Source: Nitrospirota bacterium
GTDB lineage: Bacteria; Nitrospirota; 9FT-COMBO-42-15; HDB-SIOI813
Reading direction: 5' to 3'
Length of the DNA stretch: 64,000 nucleotides
Assembly (NCBI GenBank): GCA_016212215.1
Contig: JACRGV010000009.1
Location: 63-64,062 of the forward strand
Part shown: piece after piece, positions 1,287 through 59,447 of the stretch
How the letters are laid out: every line of letters starts with the position of its first letter
How positions within the stretch are numbered: the first letter of the stretch is position 1
The notes under the pieces: generated by a model
Seen by the model: the letters and a program-made list of their open reading frames with translations, nothing else
What the model was told of the DNA's origin: nothing
The model's database searches: none
Program-made: the position numbers and the translations under genes

Positions 1287-3017
1287 TTGAAGATGATGTA
1301 CAGTGGAAAACCTAAGATATTTATAATAGGGATTGATGGAGGTACTTTTGATCTTATTGAGCCGTGGGTAAATGAAGGACTTCTTCCTAATTTTGCAAGA
1401 TTGATGAAAGAAGGCTATTGGGGAAATCTTGAATCCACAATGCCCCCGATAACTGCCCCTGCATGGACATCCTTTATGACAGGTAAAAATCCGGGCAAGC
1501 ATGGACTGTTCCATTTTATAGAACCCGAGCCTGGACGTTATGAGATGCGGTACACAAATGCACTTTCAAGAAGGGCAAAAACATTATGGGCGATTCTCAA
1601 TGAAGCGGGTTTGAGTACAGGTGTGTTTAATGTACCTATGACATATCCGCCTGAGAAGTTGAATGGTTACTGTATTTCCGGATTGGATGCACCGGAAGAA
1701 AGCAGCAGGATATTTTATCCGGAATCATTGTATAAAGAGTTACAAAAAACATTTAACCGCAAAAAACTCGGTTTTCTTGGTGTTCAGTTTTTGGGTGAAA
1801 CAAGGTCCGACAACAAGCGTGATCAGTTTATCAAACGTTCTATGGAGGTTGAGGACTTTAAGACAGATATGATACTCCACTTAATGGAGACACACCCTAC
1901 GGATGTTGTTATGATGGTATTTCGTGCAACTGATCATTTTCAGCATCTGTTTTGGCATTTTATGGATCCTGCTCACCCGCGTTTTGACGCTGTTGGAGCA
2001 ATAAAATATAACAATGCAATACTTAAAATTTATCAGAATGTGGATATGAATATACAACGAATATTATCTTCTCTTTCAGATGATACATCTGTTGTCATGC
2101 TGTCAGATCATGGGGCAGGTGCAACGCCGCAGCGTGTTTTTTATGTTAATAGATTCCTGCAGGAAATAGGAATGCTTCATCTCAAGGGCGGCAATAATAG
2201 AGATGCCGGTTTAATTAATTATGGTGTTAAAAAAATGGATAAGGTTCTTCGAACTTTTCTACCTTCAGATACAAAGGCAACGCTTGTGAATAATTTCCCT
2301 ACTCTGAGGAGGAAATGGGAAGAACGTTCTACTCTTTTTTCTTCTATAGACTGGTCAAAGACAAGGGCATATTGTCATGAAGTGTTAACCAACCCTTCGA
2401 ATATTTGTATAAATGTAAAAGGAAAGATGCCTGAGGGTATTGTAAATCCTGGGAAAGAATACAAAGAAATAATTGAAAATATACGTGAACAACTCTACTC
2501 TCTGAAAGAGCCAAGGAGCAATGAACAGGTTATAAAAAAGGTTTATACAAAAGAAGAACTCTACAATGGCCCTTATTTAGAAGAAGCTCCTGATCTTACT
2601 CTTGCATGGTGGGAGGAAAATTCCTTTGTAGGGAGACCAAGTTTCGGAGTAACTTGCAAAGGTTCAGTGGATTATGTGGAGGATAAAATATCCACTGGAA
2701 CTGAGTGGAGCGGCACCCACAAGATGAATGGGGTATTTCTTCTAAAAGGACCTGGATTTAAAAAAGATACAGGCAAATATAACGCAAGTATTATGGACCT
2801 GACTCCAACACTTTTATATAGAATGGGTGTTCCGGTACCGAGAGATATGGACGGCAGGGTCTTAAAAGAGGCTTTCACAGATGATTTTATATCGTCCAAT
2901 CCGGTTAAATACTCAGATAACAGCGGTTCTCAGTTTGAACAACAGGAAGTGACTTATGAAGATGATGAGGCTGAGATGGTGAAAGCCAGGCTCAGAGACC
3001 TTGGATATGTGCAGTAA
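1287..3017 (+). CDS. Alkaline-phosphatase-superfamily protein (type I phosphodiesterase / nucleotide pyrophosphatase-like)
   Basis: N-terminal 'IIGIDGGTFDLI...LPN...PPITAPAWTSFMTGKNPGKHG' metal-binding/Thr-nucleophile block and 'MLSDHGAG' block are typical of the PF01663-like AP superfamily. Tandem paralog of the next gene. Confidence 0.65.
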   Translation: MKMMYSGKPKIFIIGIDGGTFDLIEPWVNEGLLPNFARLMKEGYWGNLESTMPPITAPAWTSFMTGKNPGKHGLFHFIEPEPGRYEMRYTNALSRRAKTLWAILNEAGLSTGVFNVPMTYPPEKLNGYCISGLDAPEESSRIFYPESLYKELQKTFNRKKLGFLGVQFLGETRSDNKRDQFIKRSMEVEDFKTDMILHLMETHPTDVVMMVFRATDHFQHLFWHFMDPAHPRFDAVGAIKYNNAILKIYQNVDMNIQRILSSLSDDTSVVMLSDHGAGATPQRVFYVNRFLQEIGMLHLKGGNNRDAGLINYGVKKMDKVLRTFLPSDTKATLVNNFPTLRRKWEERSTLFSSIDWSKTRAYCHEVLTNPSNICINVKGKMPEGIVNPGKEYKEIIENIREQLYSLKEPRSNEQVIKKVYTKEELYNGPYLEEAPDLTLAWWEENSFVGRPSFGVTCKGSVDYVEDKISTGTEWSGTHKMNGVFLLKGPGFKKDTGKYNASIMDLTPTLLYRMGVPVPRDMDGRVLKEAFTDDFISSNPVKYSDNSGSQFEQQEVTYEDDEAEMVKARLRDLGYVQ

Positions 3018-3039
3018 AATTGTGTAGAGACAGGGTACA

Positions 3040-3107
3040 TGGTTTTATTCCCCCTCCCTTGACTGGAGGGGGTTAGGGGGAGGGTGAGCTATGGAGATTT
3101 TCGGATG
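3040..3107. repeat. GC-rich palindromic mosaic repeat unit (REP/BIME-like)
   Basis: 'ccccctcccttgactggagggggttagggggagggtgagctatggagattttcggatgaa'. Hairpin plus the terminal ATG module that supplies the start of gene 3105. Confidence 0.8.
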
Positions 3108-4811
3108 AATAAGTTACTAATCATTGGCCTTGATGGCGGTACATTCGATTTAATAAAGCCCTGGGCAGGGAATGGGAAACTTCCCAATCTTTCGAGATTA
3201 TTAAATGAAGGCGTACATGCAAGGTTGAACAGCACTATCCCTCCGATGACATTTCCTGCATGGAATACATTTATGACAGGAAAGAATCCCGGGAAACATG
3301 GTGTTTATGATTTTACAGAGCGTAAACAGGGGAGCTATGAGGTACAGTTTGTAAATGGAGGGATGAGAAGAAGCAAGACCATCTGGCAGATTATGAATGA
3401 AGCAGGTAAGAATGTCGGTATAATGGCAGTACCTGCAACTTATCCGCCGGAAGAGGTCAAACATTTTATGATCAGCGGGTTTGATACTCCTGGTATGACA
3501 TCCCCTAAAGGCAAAGCCACATCAATGTATCCTCAGGAACTATTTGAGGAGTTAAACAAAGAGGTTGGGGAATATGTTGTTACATCAAATGTTCACGGAG
3601 ATATTGCAAAGGGTAACCTGGATATTGCAGAACAAAAAATCCTTGCAACAATTGAGAGAAAGGCGGCAAATGCCAAATATCTTTATAAGAAATATCAGCC
3701 CAACTGTTTCATGATTGTTTTTGGTGAGACAGATTTAGTGAGCCACAGTTTCTGGCATTTCTATGACCCTCGTTCTCCTCTTCATAATAAAGGTGAAGGT
3801 AGAAAATACAAGGATACTATACTTCATATTTATGAGAAGGTGGATGAAAAGATCGGCGAACTCTTATCCATGTCTTCAAAAGATACCGTGGTTATGATTA
3901 TGTCGGACCATGGATTTGGAGGGAGCGGGAATAAGGCAGTTTATCTTAACAATTGGCTGGCAGAAAATGGATTACTTGCTTTCAGGGATACGTCTTATTC
4001 ATCAATGAAAAATGACCTGCTTCAGGGGGTTAAACGTGCAGGGATAAAGTTCGTTCCGGCCAAATTAAAGGGGATATTGATGCGCAGTAACTCAGTAAAA
4101 TTTGTCAACAAGCTCGAATCCTCTTTAAGATTTTCACAAATAGAATGGTCCGGGACAATGGCATTTTCAGAAGAGACCCCTCATTTTCCTTCAATATGGG
4201 TAAATGTGAGAGGAAGGGACCCTGAAGGGATAGTAGCGCCGGGTGCAGAATATGAGAAAGTAAGAGATGAGATTATTCAGAAACTTTATAGTTTTAAAGA
4301 TCCGTATACATGTCAGCCTGTAGTCAATAAGGCATATCGCAGGGAAGAGGTTTATAAAGGGAATTATACTCAAAAGTCCCCGGATATTGTGATTGATTGG
4401 GCACTGACTGAAGGCTATACCTATCTCAGTGAACAGAGTAAGCCGAACAAGTTCAATGAATCTATAAGAAAACTAAGCCCATCGGAAGTTCATACTGCGA
4501 GGTTCGGGAGCCACCGTCAGCATGGCATCTTTATACTGCACGGAGGTCCGATTAAAAGAAACTTAGAGATTACAAATGCTAATATTGCAGACCTTGCCCC
4601 CACTGCCCTCTATTTACTTGACATCCCTGTGCCTGATGATATGGATGGGGTTGTCCTGAAGGATGCCATCAAAAAGGATTATATAACAGATCATCCATTG
4701 AAAATTGTAAACAACACCGGCGATTCTAACATTGAAAAAGATCCTGCAGGATATTCACAGGATGAAGAAGATGCAGTCAGGGATCGTCTTGCTGATATGG
4801 GTTACATATAA
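3105..4811 (+). CDS. Alkaline-phosphatase-superfamily protein, paralog of 1287-3017
   Basis: Same conserved blocks (LIIGLDGGTFDLI, PPMTFPAWNTFMTGKNPGKHG, MSDHGFG). The ORF track starts at GTG 3084 inside a repeat unit. ATG 3105 (MNKLLIIGLDGG) aligns with the paralog's N-terminus. Confidence 0.65.
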   Translation: MNKLLIIGLDGGTFDLIKPWAGNGKLPNLSRLLNEGVHARLNSTIPPMTFPAWNTFMTGKNPGKHGVYDFTERKQGSYEVQFVNGGMRRSKTIWQIMNEAGKNVGIMAVPATYPPEEVKHFMISGFDTPGMTSPKGKATSMYPQELFEELNKEVGEYVVTSNVHGDIAKGNLDIAEQKILATIERKAANAKYLYKKYQPNCFMIVFGETDLVSHSFWHFYDPRSPLHNKGEGRKYKDTILHIYEKVDEKIGELLSMSSKDTVVMIMSDHGFGGSGNKAVYLNNWLAENGLLAFRDTSYSSMKNDLLQGVKRAGIKFVPAKLKGILMRSNSVKFVNKLESSLRFSQIEWSGTMAFSEETPHFPSIWVNVRGRDPEGIVAPGAEYEKVRDEIIQKLYSFKDPYTCQPVVNKAYRREEVYKGNYTQKSPDIVIDWALTEGYTYLSEQSKPNKFNESIRKLSPSEVHTARFGSHRQHGIFILHGGPIKRNLEITNANIADLAPTALYLLDIPVPDDMDGVVLKDAIKKDYITDHPLKIVNNTGDSNIEKDPAGYSQDEEDAVRDRLADMGYI

Positions 4812-18328: not shown

Positions 18329-20249
18329 TAGTCATAAATTGATCAGCCTTGATGTTTGTTAATTTCTGTACAATTCCAGAAGGCCATTGTATTGTAAGAG
18401 TATCAATTGATGAGGCGGTTCCGGTTCCGAAATGCACCGGGCCGCTTCCCTGAGAACGAAGTTCCCCTCCTCCGCCTCCGTTTACTTCCCTGAATTGATT
18501 TTTCCCGTTAATTGTCAAGGTAAGTTTCGCTCCAATTCCAAGACGGTTACTTTTCTTCCCTGCCAATTGAACCTTTAGATAGTGATTAATTTTATTCCTG
18601 TTATTCTTATAAAGAATCACAGGTCCATAAGCTAATGGGTATAGCTCACCAACGCCGTTCTTCAGGATAAGGTCAAGGAAACCGTCGTTGTTATAGTCCC
18701 CCCATGCAGCCCCGAAGTGCCGGTATGAGGCTTTATTATCATCAGTTCCTGTATTGCCTGCAACATCTGTAAATGTCCCATCACCATTATTTTTAAATAA
18801 TATATTAGGGGCACCCCCGGAAATATCTCCTCCATCTACAACGTATAAATCCATGAGGCCGTCATTATCGTAATCACCCCATAAGGCTGTTGAATGTGAT
18901 CCAATTTTATCCATACCGGATATAGTTGTTACATCACTGAAAGTCCCATCTTTATTATTTTTATATAGCGTATCTATGAAACCGGTATCAACGGGTTTAA
19001 AATTTGTTTTGATATTAGTTAAGCTGTTGTCACCTGTTATTTTACCGTAGAATATATTCAGGTTACCGTTACTGCTGTAATATACATGCCAGACATCAGA
19101 CTCATCTTTCCAAATATAAAAACCTATTTCTGATACCGGCAGGATAGTGGGAACACCTGTAAGCCGTTCATCATCTCTTGTTAAAGTAAAAGGCACTGTA
19201 GAAGGGGTTGTTTTCCCGCCCCCTAAAAATATTTTGTTGGGTTGATGTGTATTTTTAATTAATAGATCAAAAGTAACATTACTGCTTTGAGTCTCAAATT
19301 TAATTTCTCCTGCTAATAATTCTATCTCATCTTTAAAATGTATTTCTGATGGTTTTGAAACTAAATTGTGGTAATTAGTGTGAACACCCCGTGCAATGTA
19401 TAAGTCCATATAGCCGTCATTATCGTAATCACCCCAGGAAACACCATTCCCTATTTTCTTCAAAAAACCGGATTCTGATGTTGTTTCAGTAAATGTATGT
19501 GAAGACGGATTATTTTTAAATAACCGGTCATTGTTGATACCTACAACAATCAGATCCATTGTGCCATCATTATTATAATCCGCCCACGAACAAGTCTGGC
19601 CATCAATATTGTCTAACCCGGTTTCTTTTGTTACATCTGTAAATGTTCCATTTCCATTATTTTTATATAATACGCTGGTAGATGCATAGTTTAAAACAAA
19701 CAGGTCAAGAAATCCGTCGTTGTCATAGTCAACCCAGAATGCACTCCTGCCGCGTCCATCGGCATTTTCAACTCCGGCAGTCAAAGTTACATTTGTAAAA
19801 TTTCCATGTCCATCGCCTTTCCAGAGTTCATCAGTTTTGCTGCCGGAGCAATTACCGTGACACCCGCCGTTTGTTATGAACATGTCTAAATTCCCATCGT
19901 TATCGTAGTCACCAATGGCTATGCCGTGACGGTCCTTGCCTCCCACAGGACTAATGCCTGTATTTTTTGTAATATTTTTAAATTTATCATTCCCCTTATT
20001 ATCATAAAAGGTTAGCTTTTCCCAATGTTGATGTATAAGTATGTCCGGTTGATTATTATTATTGAAGTCTGCCCAGATTGGGTTAATAAAACTTAGGCCG
20101 GTCTTTGCCTTACCCAGCACTGTTAATGATGTGACATCTGAAAAGGTTGTTTGCGAATCCTCATTTTTTGGATCATTTAAACACCCGTAGATTAAAATTG
20201 GAAGTATGAGCAGAATAGAAAGATAATACAATGTATTAATATTCTTCAT
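18312..20249 (-). CDS. CRTAC1-family protein (FG-GAP/VCBS repeats + ASPIC/UnbV C-terminal domain), lipoprotein
   Basis: Repeated 'WGDYDNDGxxDLxV' FG-GAP-like blocks. C-terminal 'LKVQLAG...SNRLGIGAKLTLTINGK...REV...GGGELRSQGSGPVHFGTG' is an ASPIC/UnbV domain. Start chosen at ATG 20249 (MKNINTLYYLSILLILPILIYGC, lipobox) to avoid overlap with the upstream paralog. Confidence 0.7.
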   Translation of the reverse strand: MKNINTLYYLSILLILPILIYGCLNDPKNEDSQTTFSDVTSLTVLGKAKTGLSFINPIWADFNNNNQPDILIHQHWEKLTFYDNKGNDKFKNITKNTGISPVGGKDRHGIAIGDYDNDGNLDMFITNGGCHGNCSGSKTDELWKGDGHGNFTNVTLTAGVENADGRGRSAFWVDYDNDGFLDLFVLNYASTSVLYKNNGNGTFTDVTKETGLDNIDGQTCSWADYNNDGTMDLIVVGINNDRLFKNNPSSHTFTETTSESGFLKKIGNGVSWGDYDNDGYMDLYIARGVHTNYHNLVSKPSEIHFKDEIELLAGEIKFETQSSNVTFDLLIKNTHQPNKIFLGGGKTTPSTVPFTLTRDDERLTGVPTILPVSEIGFYIWKDESDVWHVYYSSNGNLNIFYGKITGDNSLTNIKTNFKPVDTGFIDTLYKNNKDGTFSDVTTISGMDKIGSHSTALWGDYDNDGLMDLYVVDGGDISGGAPNILFKNNGDGTFTDVAGNTGTDDNKASYRHFGAAWGDYNNDGFLDLILKNGVGELYPLAYGPVILYKNNRNKINHYLKVQLAGKKSNRLGIGAKLTLTINGKNQFREVNGGGGGELRSQGSGPVHFGTGTASSIDTLTIQWPSGIVQKLTNIKADQFMTINEEE

Positions 20250-20289
20250 TATGTACTGCGTTGCTTTCAACTTAGCTTGCACTAAATGA

Positions 20290-22197
20290 TTACTCAACAA
20301 CTCTTAAAGTTTGGTTCGCCGGTATGTTTGTTAAAATTTGAGTTAATCCGGATGGCCACTTAATTATAAGAGAATTTACGGCCGTTGCAGCACCTGTTCC
20401 GAAATGCACCGGTACGTTGCCTTGAGAATGTAATTCACCGCCGCTGTTAACTTCCCTGTACTGGATTTGACCGTTAATATTTAATATCAACTTTGCACCA
20501 ATGGCAGACCGGTTACTTTGAGTCCCGGTTAACTTAACCTTTAGCCAGTGGCTATTATTTCCATTATTCCTGTAAAGGACATCACTGCCTGTTGCGAGGG
20601 GATATGACATTCCCACACCATTTTTCATGAACAGGTCTAAAAAACCATCATTATTATAATCACCCCATGCAGCACCGAAATGGCGGCTCTGAATATTGCC
20701 CGCATCAATACCATTATAAACAGCGACATTCGTAAATGTACCATTACCATTATTTTTATACAGGAGATTAGGTTTACTTCCTGAAATGTCTCCAGCCTCT
20801 ACAGTATATAGATCTATGAAACCGTCATTATTAAAATCTCCAAAGGCAGATGTTTGATGATTACCAAACTTCCCAACACCTGCTGAATCAGTAACATCAG
20901 TAAAAGTGCCGTTACCGTTATTTTTGTAAAGTGTATCTTTAAATTGAAGTCTTGCAGGGGTAAATGTCGGGACAACTGAGGTAAAACTACCATTACCTGT
21001 TATGACGCCATAATATACAGGCCACTTGTTATATCCGCTGTACCTCAGATGCCATGTGCCTGTATTATCTTTCCAGATATAATAACCTGTGTCTACTCCA
21101 CGGGTGTAAGCAGGCATTCCATCAAGCAAGGGGTCTGATGCAGATATTGTAAATGGCAGAGATGCAGGATTGGTTTTATTCCCTCCGATAAAAATCATGC
21201 CTTTTTGCGCGAGGTTACTAATATAAAGGTCAAAGGTTACACTTCCACTATTGGTAGTAAAATCAACGCCGTCTTCCAAGTTTTCCTCATCTAAGAATGT
21301 AATTTTAGATGCATTCCAGATTAAGACATCCCTCATCTTTTCTATCCCCCGTGAGACATGAAGGTCAGGCAGGCCGTCATTATTATAATCTCCCCAAGCT
21401 GTTCCCATTCCTATCCTCGGGAGAAGACCTGCTTGCGTTGTTATATCAGTGAAGATATGGGAAATGGGGTCATTTCTGAATAACCTGTCCTTTACAACCC
21501 CGGTTACAAGAATGTCCATCGCACCGTCATTATTATAATCTGCCCATGAACAGACCTTACCTGTTATTTTCATTAGGCCGGTTGCTGATGCAACGTTTGT
21601 AAATGTCCCATTGCCGTTATTCCTGTACATTACACTGTTAGTATTATAATTCAAGACAAACAGGTCTAAGAGTCCGTCATTATTATAGTCAACCCAGTAG
21701 GCACTCCTTCCTCGACCGGAGGAGTTTGCAACACCGGCGGCGGTTGTAACGTTTATAAACTTCCCCTGCCCGTTTCCTTTCCATAGTTCATCGCTCTTAC
21801 CGCCTATGCAGTTACCCATGCAGGCTCCATCTGTAATGTATATATCCAAGTTCCCGTCATTATCATAATCTCCCCATGCCATACCATGCCTGTCTACGCC
21901 TGTCACAGGAGTAATGCCTGAAGTTCCAATTATGTTAATAAACTTACCGGAACCATTATTCAGATAAAGAGATAGAGGCCCTACGTGGTGTTGAATAAGA
22001 ATATCAGGATTATCATCATTATTAAAATCACCCCACATCGGGTTATCGTAACTCGCCCCAACCTTCCCGAGTCCTGCTGAAGCAGTAACATTTGTAAAAG
22101 TTGCTGATGCATTAGTTACCTCAAATCCATAATTGATCAAGACAGATATGACGAAAGTAATCGAGCAAATAATAAAACGACACAGTTGTTTCTTCAA
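20290..22197 (-). CDS. CRTAC1-family protein (FG-GAP repeats + ASPIC/UnbV), tandem paralog
   Basis: Same architecture and motif blocks as 18312-20249 (WGDFNNDDNPDIL, ASPIC/UnbV C-terminus). N-terminal signal peptide. Confidence 0.7.
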   Translation of the reverse strand: MKKQLCRFIICSITFVISVLINYGFEVTNASATFTNVTASAGLGKVGASYDNPMWGDFNNDDNPDILIQHHVGPLSLYLNNGSGKFINIIGTSGITPVTGVDRHGMAWGDYDNDGNLDIYITDGACMGNCIGGKSDELWKGNGQGKFINVTTAAGVANSSGRGRSAYWVDYNNDGLLDLFVLNYNTNSVMYRNNGNGTFTNVASATGLMKITGKVCSWADYNNDGAMDILVTGVVKDRLFRNDPISHIFTDITTQAGLLPRIGMGTAWGDYNNDGLPDLHVSRGIEKMRDVLIWNASKITFLDEENLEDGVDFTTNSGSVTFDLYISNLAQKGMIFIGGNKTNPASLPFTISASDPLLDGMPAYTRGVDTGYYIWKDNTGTWHLRYSGYNKWPVYYGVITGNGSFTSVVPTFTPARLQFKDTLYKNNGNGTFTDVTDSAGVGKFGNHQTSAFGDFNNDGFIDLYTVEAGDISGSKPNLLYKNNGNGTFTNVAVYNGIDAGNIQSRHFGAAWGDYNNDGFLDLFMKNGVGMSYPLATGSDVLYRNNGNNSHWLKVKLTGTQSNRSAIGAKLILNINGQIQYREVNSGGELHSQGNVPVHFGTGAATAVNSLIIKWPSGLTQILTNIPANQTLRVVE

Positions 22198-22254: not shown

Positions 22255-24405
22255 CTATTTGACTTTATATCCAAGCAGCCATGCACTTGATTGGAATGAA
22301 GGAGACACTGTAAGGCTTTCATTGCTGATTACCTCTACAGCTCCTATGTGGATTTCTCCTGACACCTTGTTCCCGATATTAAATGTTTTAGAATAGGTTG
22401 AACCATTTGATATTAATTTGGACACGCTTTTCCCATCATCATAGAACAGGTAGGCATTAACAGGTACTGATGCAGGGGTAAATATTTCCATCTCAACTGT
22501 GACCTCATTGTTTTTATTCAAGATTGGTAATCCATCGGGTATATTACGGAGTTCTCGGGAGATGCCTGTTTCCCAAAAGACAACCCCTTCCTGATTTTTG
22601 ATTTTAACCCATTTTATTTTGAATTCCGGGTCCGGAGTTCCTGATGATGTCATAATGATTTCATTAGGCGAAATATGTGATACACTCCAGCTTCCATCAT
22701 CATTCTCATGGGCCTTAATATTGGATTTAATAGATATGTTGATATGTTTAGTAGTTGTGCCTAACTTTGCTTCGCCTGCCCCAATCCTTTCGACTTCAAC
22801 GTTTGCTATGGAACCATTGGCATCACCGGCTATATTCTGGAAAGAGATGTCTCCTGACAGGGTTCTTGTCAGTTCAGGCTGAGATGGTATTGTTATTTCA
22901 AAAAGGCTGTTGATTTTCAACAGCTTTTCTAAACTTATTGCATCCTTGATCTTATCAAGGGCTATATTTGACATTGTGCTTCCAGTCGTAAATGTCCATG
23001 AATAGTTATTTACCAATGCATTACCTGCAACGTCTTGAACCCCTGTAGTGATGGTTGCTGTGTATTGAATTTCGTAGCTAAGCGGGGCTGATGGTTTAAA
23101 TGTAGCAGTGCCGTTATTATAAGTAACATTTCCTGCTATCGTGCTGCCATCCGTTTTTTTCAAAGTAAATGTTTCTGTTGTTATGGTAAGTGGGTTCATA
23201 GCTTCAGAGAAGGTTGCAGAGACAGATGTATCAGCACTTATACCGGTAGAATTACCGGCAGGAGCAAACGAATCAAGAATTACTGCCGGTGGTGTGGTAT
23301 CCGGGGTTATGCCTGTAGTAAAGCTCCATGATTTGTTGGATGCCATATAATTGCCGGCCAGGTCCTTTACCCCTGTTGTGATTGTTGCATTGTAGGGAGA
23401 AGAGTCATCGAGAGAGACTGATGGGTTAAAAGTAGCAGTCATTCCATTGTAAGAGACATCTCCTGTAACATCGCTCCCGCCTGATTTAGCCAGAGTGAAT
23501 GTTGTTGTATTTACAGTGGATGTATTAATTGATTCGGAGAATGTTGCTGATATAGAAATGTTAGAAGGAATATCAGTTGTATTATTCTCAGGATATGTAG
23601 AGCTTACAGAAGGTGGTGTAGTATCCTCATCTAAAGCAGAACCGGTAGTGAAAGTCCATGTATAATCATTTGTCATCCCATTTCCTGCTGAATCTTTTAC
23701 TGCGGATGTAATATTTGCAGTGTAGTCAGTTAAATAACTTAATGGGGCTAATGGTTTAAAAGTAGCAGTATTTCCATTATAAGAAACCTCTCCTGTAACA
23801 CTGCTGCCGTCTGTTTTAGTTAAAGTAAATGTTGCTGTTGTTATTGTAGATGGATTGATAGGTTCCGAGAATGTTGCTGTTAAAGAAGCATTGGAAGCAA
23901 CACCTGTAGTATTTCTTTCAGGAGCTGTAGAATTTATAGAAGGAGGTGTAGAATCAGGCGCCGCATCTGTAGTAAAGCTCCATGAGAAACTATTGGTCAT
24001 GTTATTGCCTGATATGTCTTTTATGCCTGTAGTAATTGTTACTGTGTAAGTATTGGAGTGCAAAAGTGAGGCTGTTGGTGTAATGGTAACAGAGGTTCCA
24101 TTATATGTAACTATAATGGGTATATTAGTACCATTTGATGTCATTATAAAATTTGCTGTAATTAATGTGGATGGGTTAATCTGCTCACTGAATACAGCAG
24201 AGATAATTGTATTAATACCTACATCAGTTGAATTATTTGCAGGGGTTGTGGAAGTTACAGCCGGTGGAGTAGTATCAGAAGGTGAGGCACCTGCTGTGGA
24301 ATTTTGTGCACCTCCATTAATAGAACCACAGCCTCCGAACAGAGTCCCCAGAAATAATAATATGATTAAAACCTGTGCATAGGATAAAAGTGACCTCTTT
24401 TTCAT
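22255..24405 (-). CDS. Surface lipoprotein with five tandem bacterial Ig-like (SbsA/Big_5-type) domains + C-terminal beta-rich domain
   Basis: Five ~95-aa repeats 'DTTPP...ST.P..N.T.V....I.A.FSE.INPST...A.F.L.....S.V.G.VSYNG.TATF.P...L...T.Y.A.IT...KD..GN....N.SW.FTT'. Start at ATG 24405 (MKKRSLL...LFGGCGS lipobox) is preceded by a GGGGGA RBS. The track's ORF start at 24492 looks like an artefactual extension. Confidence 0.65.
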   Translation of the reverse strand: MKKRSLLSYAQVLIILLFLGTLFGGCGSINGGAQNSTAGASPSDTTPPAVTSTTPANNSTDVGINTIISAVFSEQINPSTLITANFIMTSNGTNIPIIVTYNGTSVTITPTASLLHSNTYTVTITTGIKDISGNNMTNSFSWSFTTDAAPDSTPPSINSTAPERNTTGVASNASLTATFSEPINPSTITTATFTLTKTDGSSVTGEVSYNGNTATFKPLAPLSYLTDYTANITSAVKDSAGNGMTNDYTWTFTTGSALDEDTTPPSVSSTYPENNTTDIPSNISISATFSESINTSTVNTTTFTLAKSGGSDVTGDVSYNGMTATFNPSVSLDDSSPYNATITTGVKDLAGNYMASNKSWSFTTGITPDTTPPAVILDSFAPAGNSTGISADTSVSATFSEAMNPLTITTETFTLKKTDGSTIAGNVTYNNGTATFKPSAPLSYEIQYTATITTGVQDVAGNALVNNYSWTFTTGSTMSNIALDKIKDAISLEKLLKINSLFEITIPSQPELTRTLSGDISFQNIAGDANGSIANVEVERIGAGEAKLGTTTKHINISIKSNIKAHENDDGSWSVSHISPNEIIMTSSGTPDPEFKIKWVKIKNQEGVVFWETGISRELRNIPDGLPILNKNNEVTVEMEIFTPASVPVNAYLFYDDGKSVSKLISNGSTYSKTFNIGNKVSGEIHIGAVEVISNESLTVSPSFQSSAWLLGYKVK

Positions 24406-35629: not shown

Positions 35630-35713
35630 TAGGGATGAGCATAGAGCAGAAGTAAGAAGCAAGAAATTAGAAGTAAGAAGATTGTACTGATAATAAACAC
35701 TAAGGGGGAATGA

Positions 35714-36727
<1,014 letters not shown>

Positions 36728-36742
36728 CGGATAACGCAAAAA

Positions 36743-37195
36743 GCCCCCCCTCCCCTTAATCCCCTCCCGCAAGGGGAGGGGAGACATAAGAGAGATTCCT
36801 TACCCTGGGGGGAGCGGGTACATAGAATATGCTCAAGGGAGAGGGTACTAAGTTTATCCCCCCTCCCTTGACGGGAGGGGGTTAGGGGGAGGGTGAGCTA
36901 TGGTGATTTTCGGATGAACTCCCATGAGCGGGGCGATCACAAAGGGCAATGAAAACCCCACCCTCACCCTAACCCTCTCCCTGAGGGAGAGGGGGCTACG
37001 TTGATTCCCTCCCCTTCAAGGGGAGGGGTAGGGTGGGGATGGGGTTGATTTTCGGATGAACTCACATGAACCAGGGTTCACGAATGGCAATGAAAATCAA
37101 CGGGACAAGAATGTCCCGCCTATCCTCATAGATATGGATAGGCGGGGTTTTCTTACCCCGCCGGAAGGATTTTCGAGTGAGTTCAATCAGGAGGA
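36743..37195. repeat. Composite BIME-like cluster (at least 5 units in alternating orientation) + three-hairpin 75-bp module
   Basis: Alternating 'ccctcccc..ggggaggg' and inverse 'caccctcaccctaaccctctccctgagggagaggg' units joined by 'catga(a/g)cNNNgNtcacaaagg.catgaaaa' linker hairpins. Ends with 'cgggacaagaatgtcccgcctatcc…ggataggcggggttttcttaccccgcc'. Confidence 0.8.
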
Positions 37196-37207
37196 TGAAA
37201 ACAATAA

Positions 37208-37852
37208 ATGGATCGTAACAGTGCCCCGTTAGCAGCAGAAGGGGTGCCTTTTGTAATTATTTCCGGGGTTATATCCATTTTGCTCTTTCTTCCGGGATGG
37301 TTGATACCCGGCATTATTTCTTCTCTGCTTTTTCTTTTTATAGTATGGTTTTTCCGTAATCCTCAGCGGAGTATTCCGACCGGGAAAAATTTGGTTGTCT
37401 CTCCTGCGGACGGTAAGATCATTGTAATAAAGAAAGGCGAAGTTGACCGTGTTCTGAAAAAGAAGATGGTGAAGATAAGCATATTCATGAATGTCTTTAA
37501 TGTCCATGTGAACAGGATACCGTGCAAAGGAAAGATAGTTGATATACTCTACAATCCCGGGAAATTTGTATCTGCCAATTTAGATAAGGCATCCCTTGAG
37601 AATGAGCAGAATGCCGTTGTAATGGAGACTGAGAAAGGGGAGAAGGTACTTTTTATACAGATAGCAGGATTGATTGCAAGGAGGATCGTCTGCCGTCTCA
37701 AAACCGGTCAACGTGTTGAAAGGGGAGAGCGGTTCGGATTAATAAGGTTCGGGTCAAGGGTGGATGTGTATCTGCCTGAGACTGCTGATATTAAGGTATC
37801 AATAGGACAAAAGGTGAAAGGAGGCGAGAGTATTCTCGCGGCACTGAAATAA
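37208..37852 (+). CDS. psd: Phosphatidylserine decarboxylase (short-form proenzyme)
   Basis: PSD family signature around 'GERFGLIRFGSRVDVYLP' (GS cleavage/pyruvoyl site). Membrane N-terminus. Immediately upstream of pssA. Confidence 0.7.
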   Translation: MDRNSAPLAAEGVPFVIISGVISILLFLPGWLIPGIISSLLFLFIVWFFRNPQRSIPTGKNLVVSPADGKIIVIKKGEVDRVLKKKMVKISIFMNVFNVHVNRIPCKGKIVDILYNPGKFVSANLDKASLENEQNAVVMETEKGEKVLFIQIAGLIARRIVCRLKTGQRVERGERFGLIRFGSRVDVYLPETADIKVSIGQKVKGGESILAALK

Positions 37853-38631: not shown

Positions 38632-40135
38632 AATTAAGATATTTGATACCACACTGAGAGACGGGGAACAGTGTCCCGGCGCCAGTATGAATAAGGAGGA
38701 AAAGCTTACAGTTGCAAGACAACTGGCCAGGCTTAATGTAGATATAATTGAGGCAGGTTTTCCAATTGCATCAGAAGATGATTTTGATGCGGTAAGACTC
38801 ATTGCAGGGGATGTAAAAGGGCCTGTGATTGCAGGGCTTGCAAGGGCGAGAAAAGAAGATATAGAGCGTGCGGCCGAGGCGGTAAAGATTGCTGAACGTT
38901 CAAGGATACATACATTTATTGCAACATCTGAGATACATATACAACAGAAACTTAGGATGAGCCGTGAGGAGGTTATCGAAGCCGCTGTTGCTGCGGTCAG
39001 ACTTGCGAGACAGTTTACAGATGATGTGGAATTTTCTGCAGAGGACGCCTCAAGGAGTGATATAGATTTTCTGTGCAGGGTGGTGGAAGCGGCCATTAAT
39101 GCAGGTGCATCCACTATAAATATACCGGATACTGTCGGCTATGCACTCCCTGATGAGTTTGGTGAATTAATCGGCAGTATAATGAACAGAGTTCCCAATG
39201 TTGATAAGGCGGTGATAAGTGTTCATTGCCATAATGATCTGGGGCTTGCAGTTGCAAATTCCTTATCCGCTGTCCTTGCAGGGGCAGGTCAGGTGGAGTG
39301 TACTATAAATGGTATTGGAGAGAGGGCCGGCAATGCCTCTATGGAAGAGGTTGTTATGGCCTTAAAGACGAGGGGACAATATTTTAGTGCGGACACCGGT
39401 ATTACTACGCAGGAGATTTATAAATCAAGCAGACTTGTGAGCACAATAACCGGCATGGTTGTTCAGCCGAATAAGGCGATCGTCGGGGCTAATGCCTTTG
39501 CCCATGAGTCCGGAATCCATCAGGACGGGCTGTTGAAAGATAAAAGGACCTATGAGATAATGACGCCTGAATCTGTTGGAATATCTGAGCACAAATTAGT
39601 GCTTGGAAAACATTCAGGCAGGCACGCATTCAAGAATAAACTCGTGGAGATGGGATACAACATCTCAGAGGATGAGATAAACAAGGCGTTTGAACGATTC
39701 AAGAAGCTTGCTGACCAGAAGAAAGAGGTCTTTGAGGAAGATTTGGACGCAATTGTAACTGAGGAGGTTTACCGGATACCTGAGAGATTTGTATTGAAAA
39801 ATTTACATGTGGAAAGCGGCAGTAATGTAACCCCTGCGGCAATGGTTGAACTTGAGATAGACGGCAGGAGTGTTACGAACAAATCGTCCGGAGACGGGCC
39901 GGTAGACGCCACCTACAGGACTATAAAAGAGATGGTAAAGACAAACAGCATCCTGTTGTCTTATGAAGTCAAAGCTATAACAGGCGGGACAGACGCACTC
40001 GGCGAAGTTACAGTAAGACTTGAAGAAAATGGAAGAACAGTAGTCGGCCAGGGTGCAGACACAGATATTATAATAGCCAGTGCAAAGGCATATCTGAATG
40101 GACTGAACAGGATGGAGAGCAGGAAAAAGCAGTGA
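38624..40135 (+). CDS. leuA: 2-isopropylmalate synthase
   Basis: '[11 protein letters not shown]' and '[12 protein letters not shown]' signatures, plus the C-terminal LeuA dimerisation domain. Confidence 0.9.
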
Positions 40136-40560
40136 ATCGTGATTAGTGAATGGTGAATAGTAAAGGCCCCCTCACCCGGAGCCTCTCCCTGAGGGGGAGG
40201 GGGCTACGTTGATTCCCTCCCCTTCAAGGGGAGGGGTAGGGTGGGGATGGGGTTGATTTTCGGATGAACTGTCATGAAACGGAGGTTTCACAAAGGAGGA
40301 TGAAAACCACCCCCCCAATCCCCCCCTTGTTAAGGGGGGGAAAGTTCCTTTGGTGCTCAATGGCCAACGGCAATCCCCCCCTTTGTTCAAGGGGGGGCAT
40401 GGGGGGGTCATTTTCGGATGAACCCACATGAACCAGGGTTCACAAAGGGACATGAAAATCAGCGGGACAAGAAAGTCCCGCCTATCCTCGTAGAGATGGA
40501 TAGGCGGGGTTTTCTTACCCCGCCGGAAGGGATTTTCGGATGAATGCAAATGAGGTTAAA
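40126..40560. repeat. Composite BIME-like cluster incl. 3' 'cagtgaat' module, variant C-tract hairpins and three-hairpin module
   Basis: Starts at leuA's last codons ('aaagcagtgaatcgtgattagtgaatggtgaatag'). Contains 'cccccctt gttaa gggggg' variant hairpins. Ends with the 75-bp module before leuC. Confidence 0.8.
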
Positions 40561-41875: not shown

Positions 41876-42063
41876 ATTTCCCTCCCCCTTGAGGGGGGAG
41901 GGGCAGGGTGGGGGTGAGCTATGGAGATAATCAGATGAACTCCCATGAAACAGGGTTTTACAAAGGGGCATGAAAATCAGCGGGACAAGAATGTCCCGCC
42001 TATCCTCAATTTACACATGGATAGGCGGGGTTTTCTTACCCCGCCGGAGGAATTTTTCGAATG
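41876..42063. repeat. BIME-like cluster + three-hairpin module ending in leuD start codon
   Basis: 'ccctcccccttgaggggggaggggcagggtgggggtgagctatggagataatcagatgaactcccatgaaacagggttttacaaaggggcatgaaaatcagcgggacaag…ttttcgaATG'. Confidence 0.8.
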
Positions 42064-42621: not shown

Positions 42622-42697
42622 GAAGATTGATGCTATAGGCAAGAATTAAGAAGTAAGAAGCAAGAAGATAGAGACACAAGTTAGAGAAAAAAAGATA

Positions 42698-42800
42698 CCC
42701 ACCCTCACCCGGACCCTCTCCCTGAGGGAGAGGGTGCTTAGATTATTCCCTCCCCTTCAAGGGGAGGGTTAGGGTGGGGATGGGGTTATTTTCAGGAGAT
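42698..42800. repeat. BIME-like pair of units
   Basis: 'cccaccctcacccggaccctctccctgagggagagggtgctt…ccctccccttcaaggggagggttagggtggggatggggtt'. Confidence 0.8.
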
Positions 42801-44344: not shown

Positions 44345-44475
44345 AAAACCCCACCCTCACCTTAATCCTCTCCCTGAGGGAGAGGAAATTTCCCACCCAT
44401 TTAAGGGGGAAGTTAGTGTGCCATGCTTAAATTCCCTCCCCTTCAAGGGGAGGGTTAGGGTGGGGATGGGGTTAT
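44345..44475. repeat. BIME-like pair of units
   Basis: Same two unit types as 42698-42800. Confidence 0.8.
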
Positions 44476-45555: not shown

Positions 45556-45730
45556 CCCCCTCACCCGGTGCCCCCCCCGCCTGCCTCCCCCCGCAAAGGA
45601 GGGGGGAGGAATTTGGTAGGAATTTAATTGCAGCTCTCCCGCCAGGGGAGAGGGAGGCTAACGTTTATTCCCCCTCCCTTGACGGGAGGGGGTTAGGGGG
45701 AGGGTGAGCTACGAAGATTTTCAGGAGAAC
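45556..45730. repeat. BIME-like cluster
   Basis: 'cccctcacccggtgcccccccgcctgcctccccccgcaaaggaggggggag…ccccctcccttgacgggagggggttagggggagggtgagctacgaagattttcaggaga'. Confidence 0.8.
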
Positions 45731-45732
45731 TA

Positions 45733-46893
45733 ATGAACAGAATATACCTTGACCATGCAGCGACTACTCCAATAAGGCCGGAAGTTATTGAGGCTATGCA
45801 GCCTTATTTCAGCAATTTCTTTGGGAATCCATCGAGCCTCCATTATTTCGGGAAGGAGACTGCAAATGCTATTAAAGACGCAAGAGAGAAGATTGCGGCA
45901 ATAATAGGGGCGCGTTGGGATGAGATTGTCTTTGTAAGCGGCGGGACAGAATCGGACAATCTTGCCATATTCGGTACCGCCTTTGCGAACAGGGATAAGG
46001 GAAGGCATATAATAACATCATGTATTGAACATCATGCTGTTCTTGAACCATGTCGCTTCCTTGAGAGGGAGGGATGGAAGGTCACGTATCTTCCGGTAGA
46101 CAGATATGGGATGGTAAATCCTGAAGATGTAAAAGATGCAATTACTGATGAGACATTTTTAATCTCAATTATGCATGCTAATAATGAAATAGGCACTATT
46201 CAGCCTATGAAGGAGATAGGGGCAATTGCAAAGGAGAGGGGTGTCATATTTCATTCAGATGCTGTTCAGACGTTTTCCCATATTCATGTAAATGTTGACG
46301 AACTTAATGTAGACCTGCTTTCTTTCTCCGGTCATAAATTCTATGGTCCTAAAGGTATCGGTGGTCTTTATGTAAGAAAAGGTACTGCAATATCTCCTCA
46401 TATACATGGGGGGTATCAGGAGTTTAAACTCAGGGCCGGTACAGAAAATGTTGCAGGGATTGTAGGTGTTGCAAAGGCAGTACAGCTTGCATCTCTTGAG
46501 ATGGTTGCACAGACCGCTTATGTAATGTCCCTGAGGGACAGGCTTGTTGAGTCCATTCTTGAGATAGATGGTATTAAACTTAACGGGCATCCAGGGAACA
46601 GGCTCCCCAATAATATAAATATTACTGTTGATTTTGTTGACGGAGAGGCAATGCTGATAAACCTTGATTTCAAAGGTATTGCAGTATCCACAGGCTCTTC
46701 ATGCAGGTCTGCGATTAAAGGGCCGTCACATGTGTTAACCGCTATCGGCAGGACGTATGAAGAGGCGAGGAGCGCCGTTAGAATCACACTCGGTAAGGAT
46801 AACACTGAAAAAGAGATTGTCTACTTTATTGAGGTTTTTAAAGATATTTTAACTAACCTGAGAAAGATGTCGCCGGTGTATCAAAAGCAGTGA
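45733..46893 (+). CDS. Cysteine desulfurase (NifS/IscS family, class V aminotransferase)
   Basis: 'IYLDHAATTP', PLP-Lys region 'FSGHKFYGPKGIGGLYVR', catalytic Cys loop 'STGSSCRSA'. Confidence 0.8.
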   Translation: MNRIYLDHAATTPIRPEVIEAMQPYFSNFFGNPSSLHYFGKETANAIKDAREKIAAIIGARWDEIVFVSGGTESDNLAIFGTAFANRDKGRHIITSCIEHHAVLEPCRFLEREGWKVTYLPVDRYGMVNPEDVKDAITDETFLISIMHANNEIGTIQPMKEIGAIAKERGVIFHSDAVQTFSHIHVNVDELNVDLLSFSGHKFYGPKGIGGLYVRKGTAISPHIHGGYQEFKLRAGTENVAGIVGVAKAVQLASLEMVAQTAYVMSLRDRLVESILEIDGIKLNGHPGNRLPNNINITVDFVDGEAMLINLDFKGIAVSTGSSCRSAIKGPSHVLTAIGRTYEEARSAVRITLGKDNTEKEIVYFIEVFKDILTNLRKMSPVYQKQ

Positions 46894-46925
46894 ATAGTGA
46901 ACAGTGAACAGTGAATAGTTAACTA
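46886..46925. repeat. 3' 'cagtgaat' tandem module overlapping the NifS-like gene stop
   Basis: 'aaagcagtgaatagtgaacagtgaacagtgaatagttaac', ~80% identical to the 40126-40165 module after leuA. Confidence 0.7.
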
Positions 46926-46994: not shown

Positions 46995-47090
46995 ATCCCT
47001 ATCCAGCCAGGGGAGAGGGTGTTAAGTTTATTCCCCCTCCCTTGACGGGAGGGGGTTAGGGGGAGGGTGAGCTATGGATATTTTCACATG
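46995..47090. repeat. BIME-like units upstream of queA
   Basis: 'ccagccaggggagagggtgttaagtttattccccctcccttgacgggagggggttagggggagggtgagctatggatattttcacATG'. Confidence 0.8.
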
Positions 47091-48972: not shown

Positions 48973-49045
48973 AAACCAGCGGGACAAGAAAGTCCCGCCT
49001 ATCCTAAGTAGAAATGGATAGGCGGGGTTTTCTTACCCCGCCGTA
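48973..49045. repeat. Three-hairpin 75-bp module (copy 4)
   Basis: 'cagcgggacaagaaagtcccgcctatcctaagtagaaatggataggcggggttttcttaccccgcc'. Confidence 0.8.
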
Positions 49046-51682: not shown

Positions 51683-52040
51683 AACCCTCATGAGCGAGGC
51701 GCTCACAAAGGACAATGAAAACCCCACCCTCACCCTAACCCTCTCCCTGAGGGAGAGGGGGCTATGTTGATTCCCTCCCCTTCAAGGGGAGGGGTAGGGT
51801 GGGGATGGGGTTGATTTTTGGATGAACCGCCATGAGCCTTCGGCTCACAAAGGTACATGAAAATGAGGCCCCCTCACCCGGAGCCCCCCTCCTGCCTCCC
51901 CCCGCAAAGGAGGGGGGAGAAATTTGGTAGGAATTTAATTGCAGCTCTCCCGCCAGGGGAGAGGGATGCTAAGTTTTTCCCCCTCCCTTGACGGGAGGGG
52001 GTTAGGGGGAGGGTGAGCTATGGAGATTTTCGGATGAACT
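51683..52040. repeat. Composite BIME-like cluster (at least 5 units)
   Basis: Linker hairpins with compensatory stems (tgagcg-ag-gcgctca; tgagcc-ttc-ggctca). Ends with the 'gattttcggATGaa' module. Confidence 0.8.
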
Positions 52041-53054: not shown

Positions 53055-53140
53055 AGATGAGCGTAGGGGAGAAGTAAGAAGTTAGAAGTAAGAAGTTAGA
53101 AGCAAGAAGTAAGAAGTTAGAAGTAAGAAGGCTGAAGACT
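53055..53140. repeat. Heptamer tandem repeat (gtaagaa/gttagaa)n, about 11 units
   Basis: 'gaagtaagaagttagaagtaagaagttagaagcaagaagtaagaagttagaagtaagaaggctgaag', immediately after the E1alpha stop. Confidence 0.8.
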
Positions 53141-56557: not shown

Positions 56558-57019
56558 GTGCGTCAGCAATGGCTTGACCAGCGGGAGTTGATAGATTCAA
56601 TGGTTGATAATAGTCCGGCAAGTCCTGCAGGTCTTCCATTAAAGAAAGGCAGGGAGGTCAACCTGATTGACCCTGCTATAATGGAAATACCAAGTACGAT
56701 TACTATAAGCCGAAATAACAAAAATACCATTGCCAATGGTGCAGGAGGAAGTGTTCTTGCTGAACCTGCTGCTGCAAGCGAAGGGGCAGAAGTTTTTTAT
56801 ACAGGAAATAATTATGCATCATATTCTACAAATGGCGGCGCTATATGGGTTAATGTTCCTATACCGGCAGGTCCTGCCGATGCCTCGCTCCCATGCTGTG
56901 ATAATGATGTAATCCATGACAAAGGGCAGCAAGAAGTTAGAAGCAAGAAGTTAGAAGTAAAGATTGGCTGCCACTTCCCTATTTTTAGCTTTCCCCCCTC
57001 CATTGACGGGAGGGGTTAG
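56558..57019 (+). CDS. Hypothetical protein (possible 3' part of a disrupted secreted-protein gene beginning at 56366)
   Basis: The track ORF starts at GTG. It is in the same frame as the signal-peptide ORF 56366-56477, separated by a single TAA. The 3' end runs into a heptamer/GC-hairpin repeat. Confidence 0.3.
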   Translation: MRQQWLDQRELIDSMVDNSPASPAGLPLKKGREVNLIDPAIMEIPSTITISRNNKNTIANGAGGSVLAEPAAASEGAEVFYTGNNYASYSTNGGAIWVNVPIPAGPADASLPCCDNDVIHDKGQQEVRSKKLEVKIGCHFPIFSFPPSIDGRG

Positions 57020-59361: not shown

Positions 59362-59447
59362 AGAAAATCAGCGGGACAAGAATGTCCCGCCTATCCTCAT
59401 AGATATGGATAGGCGGGGTTTTCTTACCCCGCCGGAGGGGGCGGATG
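59362..59447. repeat. Three-hairpin 75-bp module (copy 5) supplying the TonB receptor ATG
   Basis: 'cagcgggacaagaatgtcccgcctatcctcatagatatggataggcggggttttcttaccccgccggagggggcggATGaac'. Confidence 0.8.

Follow-up and report, generated by a model that had tools for sequence, protein, structure and literature searches.

Five copies of a nearly invariant palindromic module are found in the stretch of DNA analysed here, 64 kb of contig JACRGV010000009.1 from a Nitrospirota bacterium (assembly GCA_016212215.1; hereafter the window, within which all five-copy counts apply). Each module is very probably a REPIN (REP doublet forming a hairpin), i.e. a doublet of two repetitive extragenic palindrome (REP) units in inverted orientation, and the five are best taken as members of a REPIN family whose units bear a (G)ATAG tag and which is tied to a clade of REP-associated tyrosine transposases (RAYTs) of Omnitrophota and related uncultivated bacteria. 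The anatomy of the module, the covariation within its stems, the linkage of the same units to RAYT genes in related loci and the empty sites of syntenic relatives all support this classification.

Five copies of one element between genes

The pattern CGCCTATCC-N(8-16)-GGATAGGCG, which describes the middle stem of the module, matches five times in the window (37117, 40479, 41997, 48996 and 59388), always on the plus strand and in intergenic DNA, with no match in 100 dinucleotide-preserving shuffles (chance expectation 0). The first hairpin (GCGGGACAAGAA[T/A]GTCCCGC) and the third hairpin (GGCGGGGTTTTCTTACCCCGCC) are confined to the same five places when at most one mismatch is allowed. A covariance model built from the window copies and the foreign copies described below, and run unfiltered, recovers only these five, at 91-97 bits on the plus strand; on the reverse strand each echoes itself at 61-65 bits, and the next-best match has 13 bits. 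The five copies, which all fall within 22 kb, had been listed in a sequence-only reading of the window; pattern match, shuffles and covariance model confirm that they are near-identical, and that reading was also right in taking them for neither coding sequence nor a simple repeat.

When the copies are aligned with their flanks, a core of about 65 nt is nearly invariant except for its central 10-13 nt. The two arms on either side of this centre are 26 nt long each and have two variable positions among the window copies, the right arm being identical in all five. The central stretch had been said to differ in every copy, but copies 1 and 5 both have TCATAGATAT, which leaves four variants among the five.

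Copy 1 (37100-37161) lies in the ilvC-psd junction and consists of a left arm (37100-37125), a 10-nt spacer (37126-37135) and a right arm (37136-37161). Copy 2 (40462-40523) is found between leuA and leuC with the spacer TCGTAGAGAT, copy 3 (41980-42044) between leuC and leuD with the 13-nt spacer TCAATTTACACAT, copy 4 (48979-49041) between a SPOR-domain gene and a ComM/Mg-chelatase-like gene with the 11-nt spacer TAAGTAGAAAT, and copy 5 (59371-59432) between a Cache-domain gene and a TonB-dependent receptor gene. All are on the plus strand and, as the sequence-only reading had it, upstream of a start codon (ATG of psd at 37208, of leuC at 40563, of leuD at 42061 and of the TonB receptor gene at 59445). 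The distance of 20-40 bp given there does not hold, however: from the last stem to the start of the open reading frame (ORF) there are 46, 39, 16, 32 and 12 nt in copies 1 to 5. Copy 1 is preceded on the plus strand by a 5' extension, GAAAATCA (37092-37099), which complements GATTTTC at 37170-37176. This extension is kept in window copies 1, 2, 3 and 5, copy 4 having GAAAACCA, and the two Schekmanbacteria copies described below have GAAAATCA and GAAAATCT.

Two inverted REP units

The outer thirds of the module repeat each other in inverted form, a point absent from the sequence-only reading. The left arm reads GCGGG-AC-AAGAA-TGT-CCCGCCTATCC; the right arm, once reverse-complemented, reads GCGGG-GT-AAGAA-AAC-CCCGCCTATCC, and the differences between them are exactly those that preserve each arm's own hairpin. 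The REP unit can be written 5'-(G)GATAG-GCGGGNNN-TTCY-N'N'N'CCCGC-3', in which an 8-bp hairpin bears at its 5' foot a tag that is conserved and single-stranded. The left unit is on the minus strand and of L-type, with the distal stem ACA/TGT; in copy 1 it is GGATAG followed by GCGGGACA-TTCT-TGTCCCGT, and the plus strand reads the hairpin followed by CTATCC. The right unit is on the plus strand and of R-type (GTT/AAC), being GGATAG followed by GCGGGGT-TTTCTT-ACCCCGC. In the window copies the two GATAG tags face each other over the 10-13-nt spacer, and the apparent middle hairpin arises because the tags pair with their complements (CTATCC...GGATAG); what had been called a variable loop is thus the spacer between two inverted units. 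Over all copies, inside and outside the window, the spacer measures 0-17 nt and the arms are near-invariant, in agreement with what has been published on REPINs (PMC3337134).

Covariation was examined in 14 distinct variants of the REP unit, which come from eight loci besides the window and from the window itself. Of the cells of the 8-bp stem, 95.5% are paired (34-49% in slid controls), and the changes at the three distal pairs affect both sides (GC/AU, UA/CG and UA/AU), with a covariation score that none of 500 shuffles reached. The ATAG tag is invariant in 14/14 variants, its usual form being GGATAG.

At 26 nt, and with a single-stranded DNA fold of -8 to -10 kcal/mol, the unit is a short palindromic stem-loop of the kind that characterizes the REP class (imperfect palindromes of 20-40 nt), and the inverted doublet that characterizes the REPIN class is found in the five window copies as well as in copies at four other loci (L001, L002, L005 and L069, see below). 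Folding of the plus strand as single-stranded DNA gives three hairpins as the minimum-energy structure, and these are the three stems of the sequence-only reading. To that description we add that the stems have bases in common (CGC and GGCG) and that, as RNA (-39 to -45 kcal/mol, z-scores -4.4 to -6.8), one long imperfect hairpin has almost the same energy as the three hairpins.

Related loci and their RAYT genes

An exact-pattern scan of one genome per species gave two loci, one in Candidatus Schekmanbacteria GWA2_38_11 (L001) and the other in an Omnitrophota metagenome-assembled genome (MAG; L002). A metagenome scan gave 68 loci, among which the only true relatives are L005, L069 and L019, the last a further record of the L001 locus; about 50 others hold an unrelated palindrome of rumen and FLNY01 contigs that shares CCCGCCTATCC...GGATAGGCGGG, and about a dozen are assorted and unrelated. 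A scan of viral contigs for the middle stem gave no locus. The arms are nearly identical in L001, L002, L005 and L069, where the spacers are 0, 7, 9 or 17 nt long and of unrelated sequence.

In L002 the left arm overlaps the stop codon of a 167-aa ORF, and the start of the same ORF is preceded, at a distance of 47 nt, by an R-type unit. The ORF scores 107.7 bits with the NCBIfam model NF047646 for REP-associated tyrosine transposases (cut-off 80) and 41.5 bits with the Pfam model Y1_Tnp (cut-off 23), and its last residues, AGQECPAYP, are encoded by the left arm. A protein search with this RAYT returned 30 cluster representatives; the C-terminus was read in 17 of them, and in 10 it is AGQECPAY(P/S), again the translation of the left arm. 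Immediately before the RAYT gene of L069 (54% identity to the L002 protein) stands a complete doublet, and an L unit covers the stop codon of that gene. Together with L069, the loci of three of the cluster representatives, L071-74 (Omnitrophica WOR_2 RIFOXYA2_FULL_45_12), L075/76 and L077, bring the bracketed genes to five further RAYT genes. In these, an R-type unit (GGATAG-hairpin) precedes the RAYT start by 15-40 nt and an L-type unit (hairpin-CTATCC) covers the stop, and the proteins are 48-70% identical to that of L002. At one bracketed RAYT the upstream unit is a variant, GCGGGATT...AATCCCGC, that represents a clean compensated change. RAYT genes flanked by the same REPs are thus found in L002, L069, L071-74, L075/76 and L077. 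REPINs have been defined as two inverted REPs with a less conserved spacer, mobilized by a RAYT which is itself flanked by REPs (PMC3337134), and REPs as carrying a tetranucleotide tag at the foot of the hairpin and often forming close dimers (PMC3733652). The linked RAYT and the REP units that bracket it therefore bear the published signature of REP/RAYT systems.

We infer that a RAYT also exists in the genome from which the window derives and that it mobilizes the element. This RAYT would be a HUH/Y1 tyrosine transposase with a single gene copy elsewhere in the genome. By homology to Escherichia coli TnpA-REP and IS200/IS605, it would attach to the hairpins and tags of the REPs in single-stranded DNA and would cut and rejoin that strand, the doublet thereby spreading into intergenic DNA. 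The arms would be almost invariant because they are recognition sites of the transposase, and the spacer would be free to drift. Copies that are transcribed would place a stable hairpin cluster in the 5' or intercistronic mRNA, presumably as a side effect, co-opted or not.

Parts of the element are also found within RAYT genes. In L069, positions 2854-2969 of the minus-strand RAYT gene (2579-3232) hold an in-frame insertion of 45-nt tandem left arms, giving the peptide repeat IMMRDKNVPPIHGKD, and the RAYTs P0005, P0009 and P0028 likewise carry in-frame insertions built from the element, that of P0028 being a whole doublet near the N-terminus. Since L units lie in frame within RAYT genes, the element also lands inside its own transposase gene. 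In L001, a copy with zero spacer (3873-3922, ...CCCGCCTATCGATAGGTGGGG...) stands between two pyruvate-dehydrogenase-E1-like ORFs; it may be a scar left where the centre was excised symmetrically, an event described for the REPINs of Pseudomonas.

Empty sites in syntenic relatives

The IlvC protein of the window is 95% identical to that of L078 (a Logan contig), 93% to that of a MAG labelled Nitrospira sp., 88% to that of L081/82 and 87% to that of L080, the MAG labels among these relatives ranging from Nitrospira to Deltaproteobacteria. L078, L080 and L081/82 share the gene order ilvBNC-psd-pssA-leuA-leuCD. The ilvC-psd junction measures 480 nt in the window and 19-21 nt in these relatives (21 nt in L078). 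The two leu junctions could be compared in L080 only, as L078 and L081/82 end before both: leuA and leuC are 427 nt apart in the window and 18 nt apart in L080, and leuC and leuD, separated by 199 nt in the window, overlap in L080. When the window is aligned by blastn with L078 (80% identical), the alignment breaks exactly at 36727/37185, which delimits a 457-nt insert running from the TAA of ilvC to the Shine-Dalgarno sequence of psd. Clean blocks of 457, about 460 and about 200 nt, as expected of inserted DNA, are seen in comparison with L078, L080 and L081, and neither the element nor any other repeat of the window occurs in the 7-21 kb available from each syntenic relative. Because the same junctions are empty in three syntenic relatives, the window copies are gains in the lineage of the window and not conserved or ancestral regulatory leaders. 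The gaps that received them are very short intercistronic gaps of housekeeping operons (0-20-nt junctions in the relatives).

Inserted DNA of this shape might also derive from a conventional miniature inverted-repeat transposable element (MITE), mobilized by an insertion sequence with a DDE transposase, or represent an attC-type site of an integron. The architecture of inverted repeats with a variable centre, the intergenic position and the single orientation, the last as in cassette arrays, would all suit such an origin, which we nevertheless consider extremely unlikely. No target-site duplication is seen at the one comparable junction, that of the whole ilvC-psd stack (AACTAA-insert-TCAGGAGG, against AACTAA-TCAGGAGG in the empty site), each arm is a hairpin with a 5' tag, the type of substrate used by Y1/HUH enzymes, and the only enzyme gene that is repeatedly adjacent to the element is that of the RAYT. 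As for an integron, the genes on either side are not cassettes but core housekeeping genes whose synteny is conserved, and direct reading reveals no evident GTTRRRY core sites in the arms, no integrase search of the window having been made.

Orientation and a possible role in RNA

The sequence-only reading had proposed a structured RNA or a palindrome recognized by a protein. The palindrome stands, as the same units bracket RAYT genes and the changes in their stems are fully compensated. A dedicated cis-regulatory RNA controlling the downstream genes (a leader, an attenuator or a riboswitch-like switch between the long hairpin and the three hairpins) is, on the other hand, highly improbable, despite two mutually exclusive folds of similar energy, the constant position of the copies upstream of an ORF in sense orientation, and a short T-run after the third hairpin in L001 and L002. 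The genes downstream share no pathway (psd, leuC, leuD, a comM-like gene and a TonB receptor gene in the window; pdhA/B-like and neuB-like genes elsewhere), the window copies have no T-tract after the hairpin, and the junctions that are empty in the three syntenic relatives mean that the element is not kept at orthologous positions. The whole window gives no match to an Rfam family at the gathering threshold, a check that the sequence-only reading had suggested, and positions 36700-37250 give only far-sub-threshold microRNA-precursor noise at E values up to 10. Furthermore, it is the sequence and not the structure alone that is near-invariant across organisms, and this sequence is physically tied to transposase genes. 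A terminator scan calls no terminator on the sense strand at any copy; there are weak antisense calls at the left arm only, and the total is not above that of shuffles.

A different possibility, which would add to the REPIN reading rather than replace it, is that the element originated as a REPIN but has been co-opted, its hairpin cluster acting at the RNA level as an intercistronic module. Such a module might stabilize or help process the mRNA, uncouple the translation of neighbouring cistrons, or donate its own Shine-Dalgarno sequence to the gene downstream. All 12 complete doublets (12/12) share the orientation of their flanking genes and precede a start codon by 12-58 nt, the count being given as five in the window, two in L001, one in L002, one in L005 and two in L069, with L019 as a further record of the L001 locus and a stated total of 12. 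CGGA(A/G)G follows four of the five window copies, and neither leuD nor the TonB receptor gene has a Shine-Dalgarno sequence before its ATG other than this GGAGG: in copy 3, GGAGGAA begins 3 nt after the element (after CCG) and serves leuD, and in copy 5, GGAGGGGG directly follows the element and precedes the ATG of the receptor gene. In the relative L080, the leuD Shine-Dalgarno sequence lies inside leuC. The RNA folds are very stable, with the energies and z-scores given above, and the REPs of E. coli are known to affect mRNA stability (PMC3479197). We still regard co-option as possible but unlikely. The orientation bias is confounded with the direction of replication, since the GC skew of the window is positive and nearly all genes between 33 and 61 kb are on the plus strand, and single-strand transposition is itself strand-biased. 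Moreover, close relatives do without the element, the CGGAGG tail is not conserved in other genomes, and the sense strand has no terminator signature.

Both themes could be joined in a wider scenario, in which a RAYT-REPIN system has moved between phyla with its REP almost unchanged, perhaps because the REP doubles as the C-terminal coding sequence of the transposase, and in which the REPINs have adapted to operon junctions and act as portable intercistronic modules. They would then always be sense-oriented, between a stop codon and the next start, with their own Shine-Dalgarno sequence, and would reshape translation coupling and mRNA stability in core metabolic operons. The RAYT-REPIN systems of Pseudomonas and Enterobacteria are vertically inherited. 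The cross-phylum part of the scenario rests on MAG labels, i.e. Schekmanbacteria for L001 as against Omnitrophota for L002 and L071, and the whole seems to us improbable.

Several observations weigh against the classification of the modules as REPINs mobilized by a RAYT. No RAYT gene is found in the 64-kb window by tblastn with the RAYT, the only matches being the 9-11 residues encoded by the arm itself. When the RAYT clade was compared by phmmer with the sequences of the Protein Data Bank (PDB), only weak matches to ISDra2 TnpA were obtained (E = 0.001) and E. coli TnpA-REP was not matched; the proteins are thus assigned to the RAYTs by the NCBIfam and Pfam models. Described REP superfamilies have GTAG or CGTC as their canonical tag (PMC3733652), where the present units have ATAG, and only five copies are visible in the window. 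Presence or absence relative to genomes that are only 75-80% identical in DNA sequence shows gain (or loss) rather than ongoing mobility. Lastly, all 12 complete doublets run in the same direction as the flanking genes and are nearer to the downstream start than to the upstream stop, and this sense orientation near start codons could point to a role at the RNA level.

Neighbouring repeats

REPIN copy 1 is part of a plus-strand stack of repeats (36728-37184) which takes up exactly the 457 nt that separate the stop codon of ilvC from the Shine-Dalgarno sequence of psd, and which also comprises two C/G-rich palindromic doublets and two linkers of about 50 nt. These doublets belong to a second, more abundant family, made of a C-rich arm (CCCCACCCTCACCCTAACCCTCTCCCTGAGGGAGAGGG), a spacer of about 12 nt and a G-rich arm (CCCTCCCCTTCAAGGGGAGGGGTAGGGTGGGGATGGGG), each arm with its own hairpin. 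Members lie at 36956-37046, 40164-40254, 42697-42787, 44349-44473 and 51722-51812, and a variant form at 3048-3091, 36857-36900, 45668-45711, 47031-47074 and 51977-52020. Nearly all copies occupy the plus strand and are stacked on the 5' side of the three-hairpin element, and the syntenic relatives lack them. They probably represent another REPIN-like family with a transposase of its own.

The linker (GATTTTCGGATGAACnCnCATGAAnCAGGGTTCACAAAGGGCAATGAAAA) stands between stacked repeats at 36905-36955, 37047-37099, 40255-40305, 40409-40461 and 41926-41979, and its first 15 nt occur alone at 3096, 40531, 42052, 51813 and 52025. Its start (GATTTTCGGATGAA) is also found after the last repeat of a stack, where leuD (42061) and the TonB receptor gene (59445) use its ATG as their start. 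The linker may belong to the mobile unit, serve as a favoured target, or have arisen by duplication of a translation-start region. A small ORF was considered and rejected, the linker ATG opening frames of 12, 12, 41 and >50 codons in different copies with no consistent peptide. The linker was also compared with the 3' coding end of the RAYT, of which it might be a remnant; the nucleotide alignment needs a 24-nt gap and shows only scattered identity (GATTTT..).

Other repeats of the window are of different kinds. Heptanucleotide tandem arrays, (GAAGTAA/GAAGTTA/GAAGCAA)n, (CAGTGAA)n and (AGTGAAT)n, directly follow plus-strand stop codons at 35648-35680, 42641-42667, 53070-53137 and 56928-56958, with further arrays at 46888-46923 and 40131-40161; we take them to resemble the short tandemly repeated heptamers of cyanobacteria. 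Three 330-nt tandem repeats at 22982-23941 and a series of repeated modules of about 150 nt on the minus strand at 18700-21900 are probably repeat domains of large surface proteins. The unrelated palindrome met in the metagenome scan is about 110 nt long (GTTGTCTTA..CCCGCTCATCCCGCCTATCC-cacacgtaagatttttt..gtgtg-GGATAGGCGGGATGAGCGGG) and highly repeated, mainly on rumen/FLNY01 metagenome contigs. It accounts for about 50 of the loci L003-L070 (e.g. L007 4880-4990; FLNY01 and Ga0310690 / Ga0247608 contigs) and shares the 11-nt core CCCGCCTATCC.

Significance

For annotation, the classification removes a candidate "new structured RNA", and it accounts for intergenic regions that are 10-20 times longer than those of relatives. 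The kind of element is already known; what is added is a family outside the well-studied Proteobacteria, in an uncultivated bacterium. Several features may interest specialists but leave the basic classification unchanged. They are the tag ATAG instead of GTAG, the distinct L and R subtypes of the arms, which compensated stem changes relate to each other, and the overlap of a REP with the C-terminal codons of a RAYT. To these can be added a REP that stays near-identical between MAGs with the labels of different phyla, where the RAYTs share only 48-70% identity with that of L002, and the strictly sense-oriented insertion into operon junctions of 0-20 nt, where the element supplies the ribosome-binding site in two cases.

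Comparison with known systems

The closest parallel is with the REPINs and RAYTs of Pseudomonas fluorescens SBW25 (Bertels & Rainey 2011; PMC3116915, PMC3337134), which also consist of inverted REPs around a variable, less conserved spacer, can fold as a whole into a long hairpin in single-stranded nucleic acid, and have a transposase gene flanked by the same REPs. They are extragenic and multi-copy; here, five copies are visible in the window, all of them intergenic. The spacer is shorter here, however (0-17 nt rather than mostly 18-110 nt), the arms are distinct L and R subtypes that are three compensated stem pairs apart, and the left arm overlaps the reading frame of the RAYT. The hosts are also different, being uncultivated bacteria (Omnitrophota, Schekmanbacteria and a lineage whose IlvC is nearest to a Nitrospira-labelled MAG) and not Gammaproteobacteria.

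In E. coli, the 5' GTAG of the REP is bound base-specifically by TnpA-REP (RayT/YafM), its A3 and G4 specifying the CT cleavage site (PMC3479197, Messing et al. 2012, who give the structure with a bound REP). A conserved tetranucleotide at the 5' foot of the hairpin is found here as well; the A and G that specify cleavage are kept in ATAG, and a CT is present in the complementary CTATCC. As in the bacterial interspersed mosaic elements (BIMEs) of E. coli, REPs are stacked with other motifs in mosaic intergenic blocks. On the other hand, the first base of the tag is A and not G, the hairpin sequence is unrelated, and phmmer with the RAYT clade does not retrieve the E. coli structure and only weakly retrieves ISDra2 TnpA.

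The GTAG and CGTC families of REPs (Di Nocera et al. 2013, PMC3733652) likewise form tagged stem-loops that mostly occur as close dimers in opposite orientation and can fold into larger structures, and with both tags on the inside the doublets described here are of the "tail-tail" (TT) type. The (G)ATAG tag nevertheless belongs to neither superfamily as defined, and whereas described REPs are predominantly located downstream of coding regions (PMC3733652), all copies here are sense-oriented and next to the start of the gene downstream.

Finally, in IS200/IS605 elements (IS608, ISDra2) and their non-autonomous derivatives, a Y1/HUH transposase recognizes subterminal hairpins and a short guide on single-stranded DNA, no target duplication is produced and orientation is biased to one strand, all of which would be points of likeness with the family described here. 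The ends of IS200/IS605 elements are not inverted repeats of each other, however, and their transposase gene travels along in many copies, whereas the hairpins of the present family are inverted and the repeat would spread without the gene.

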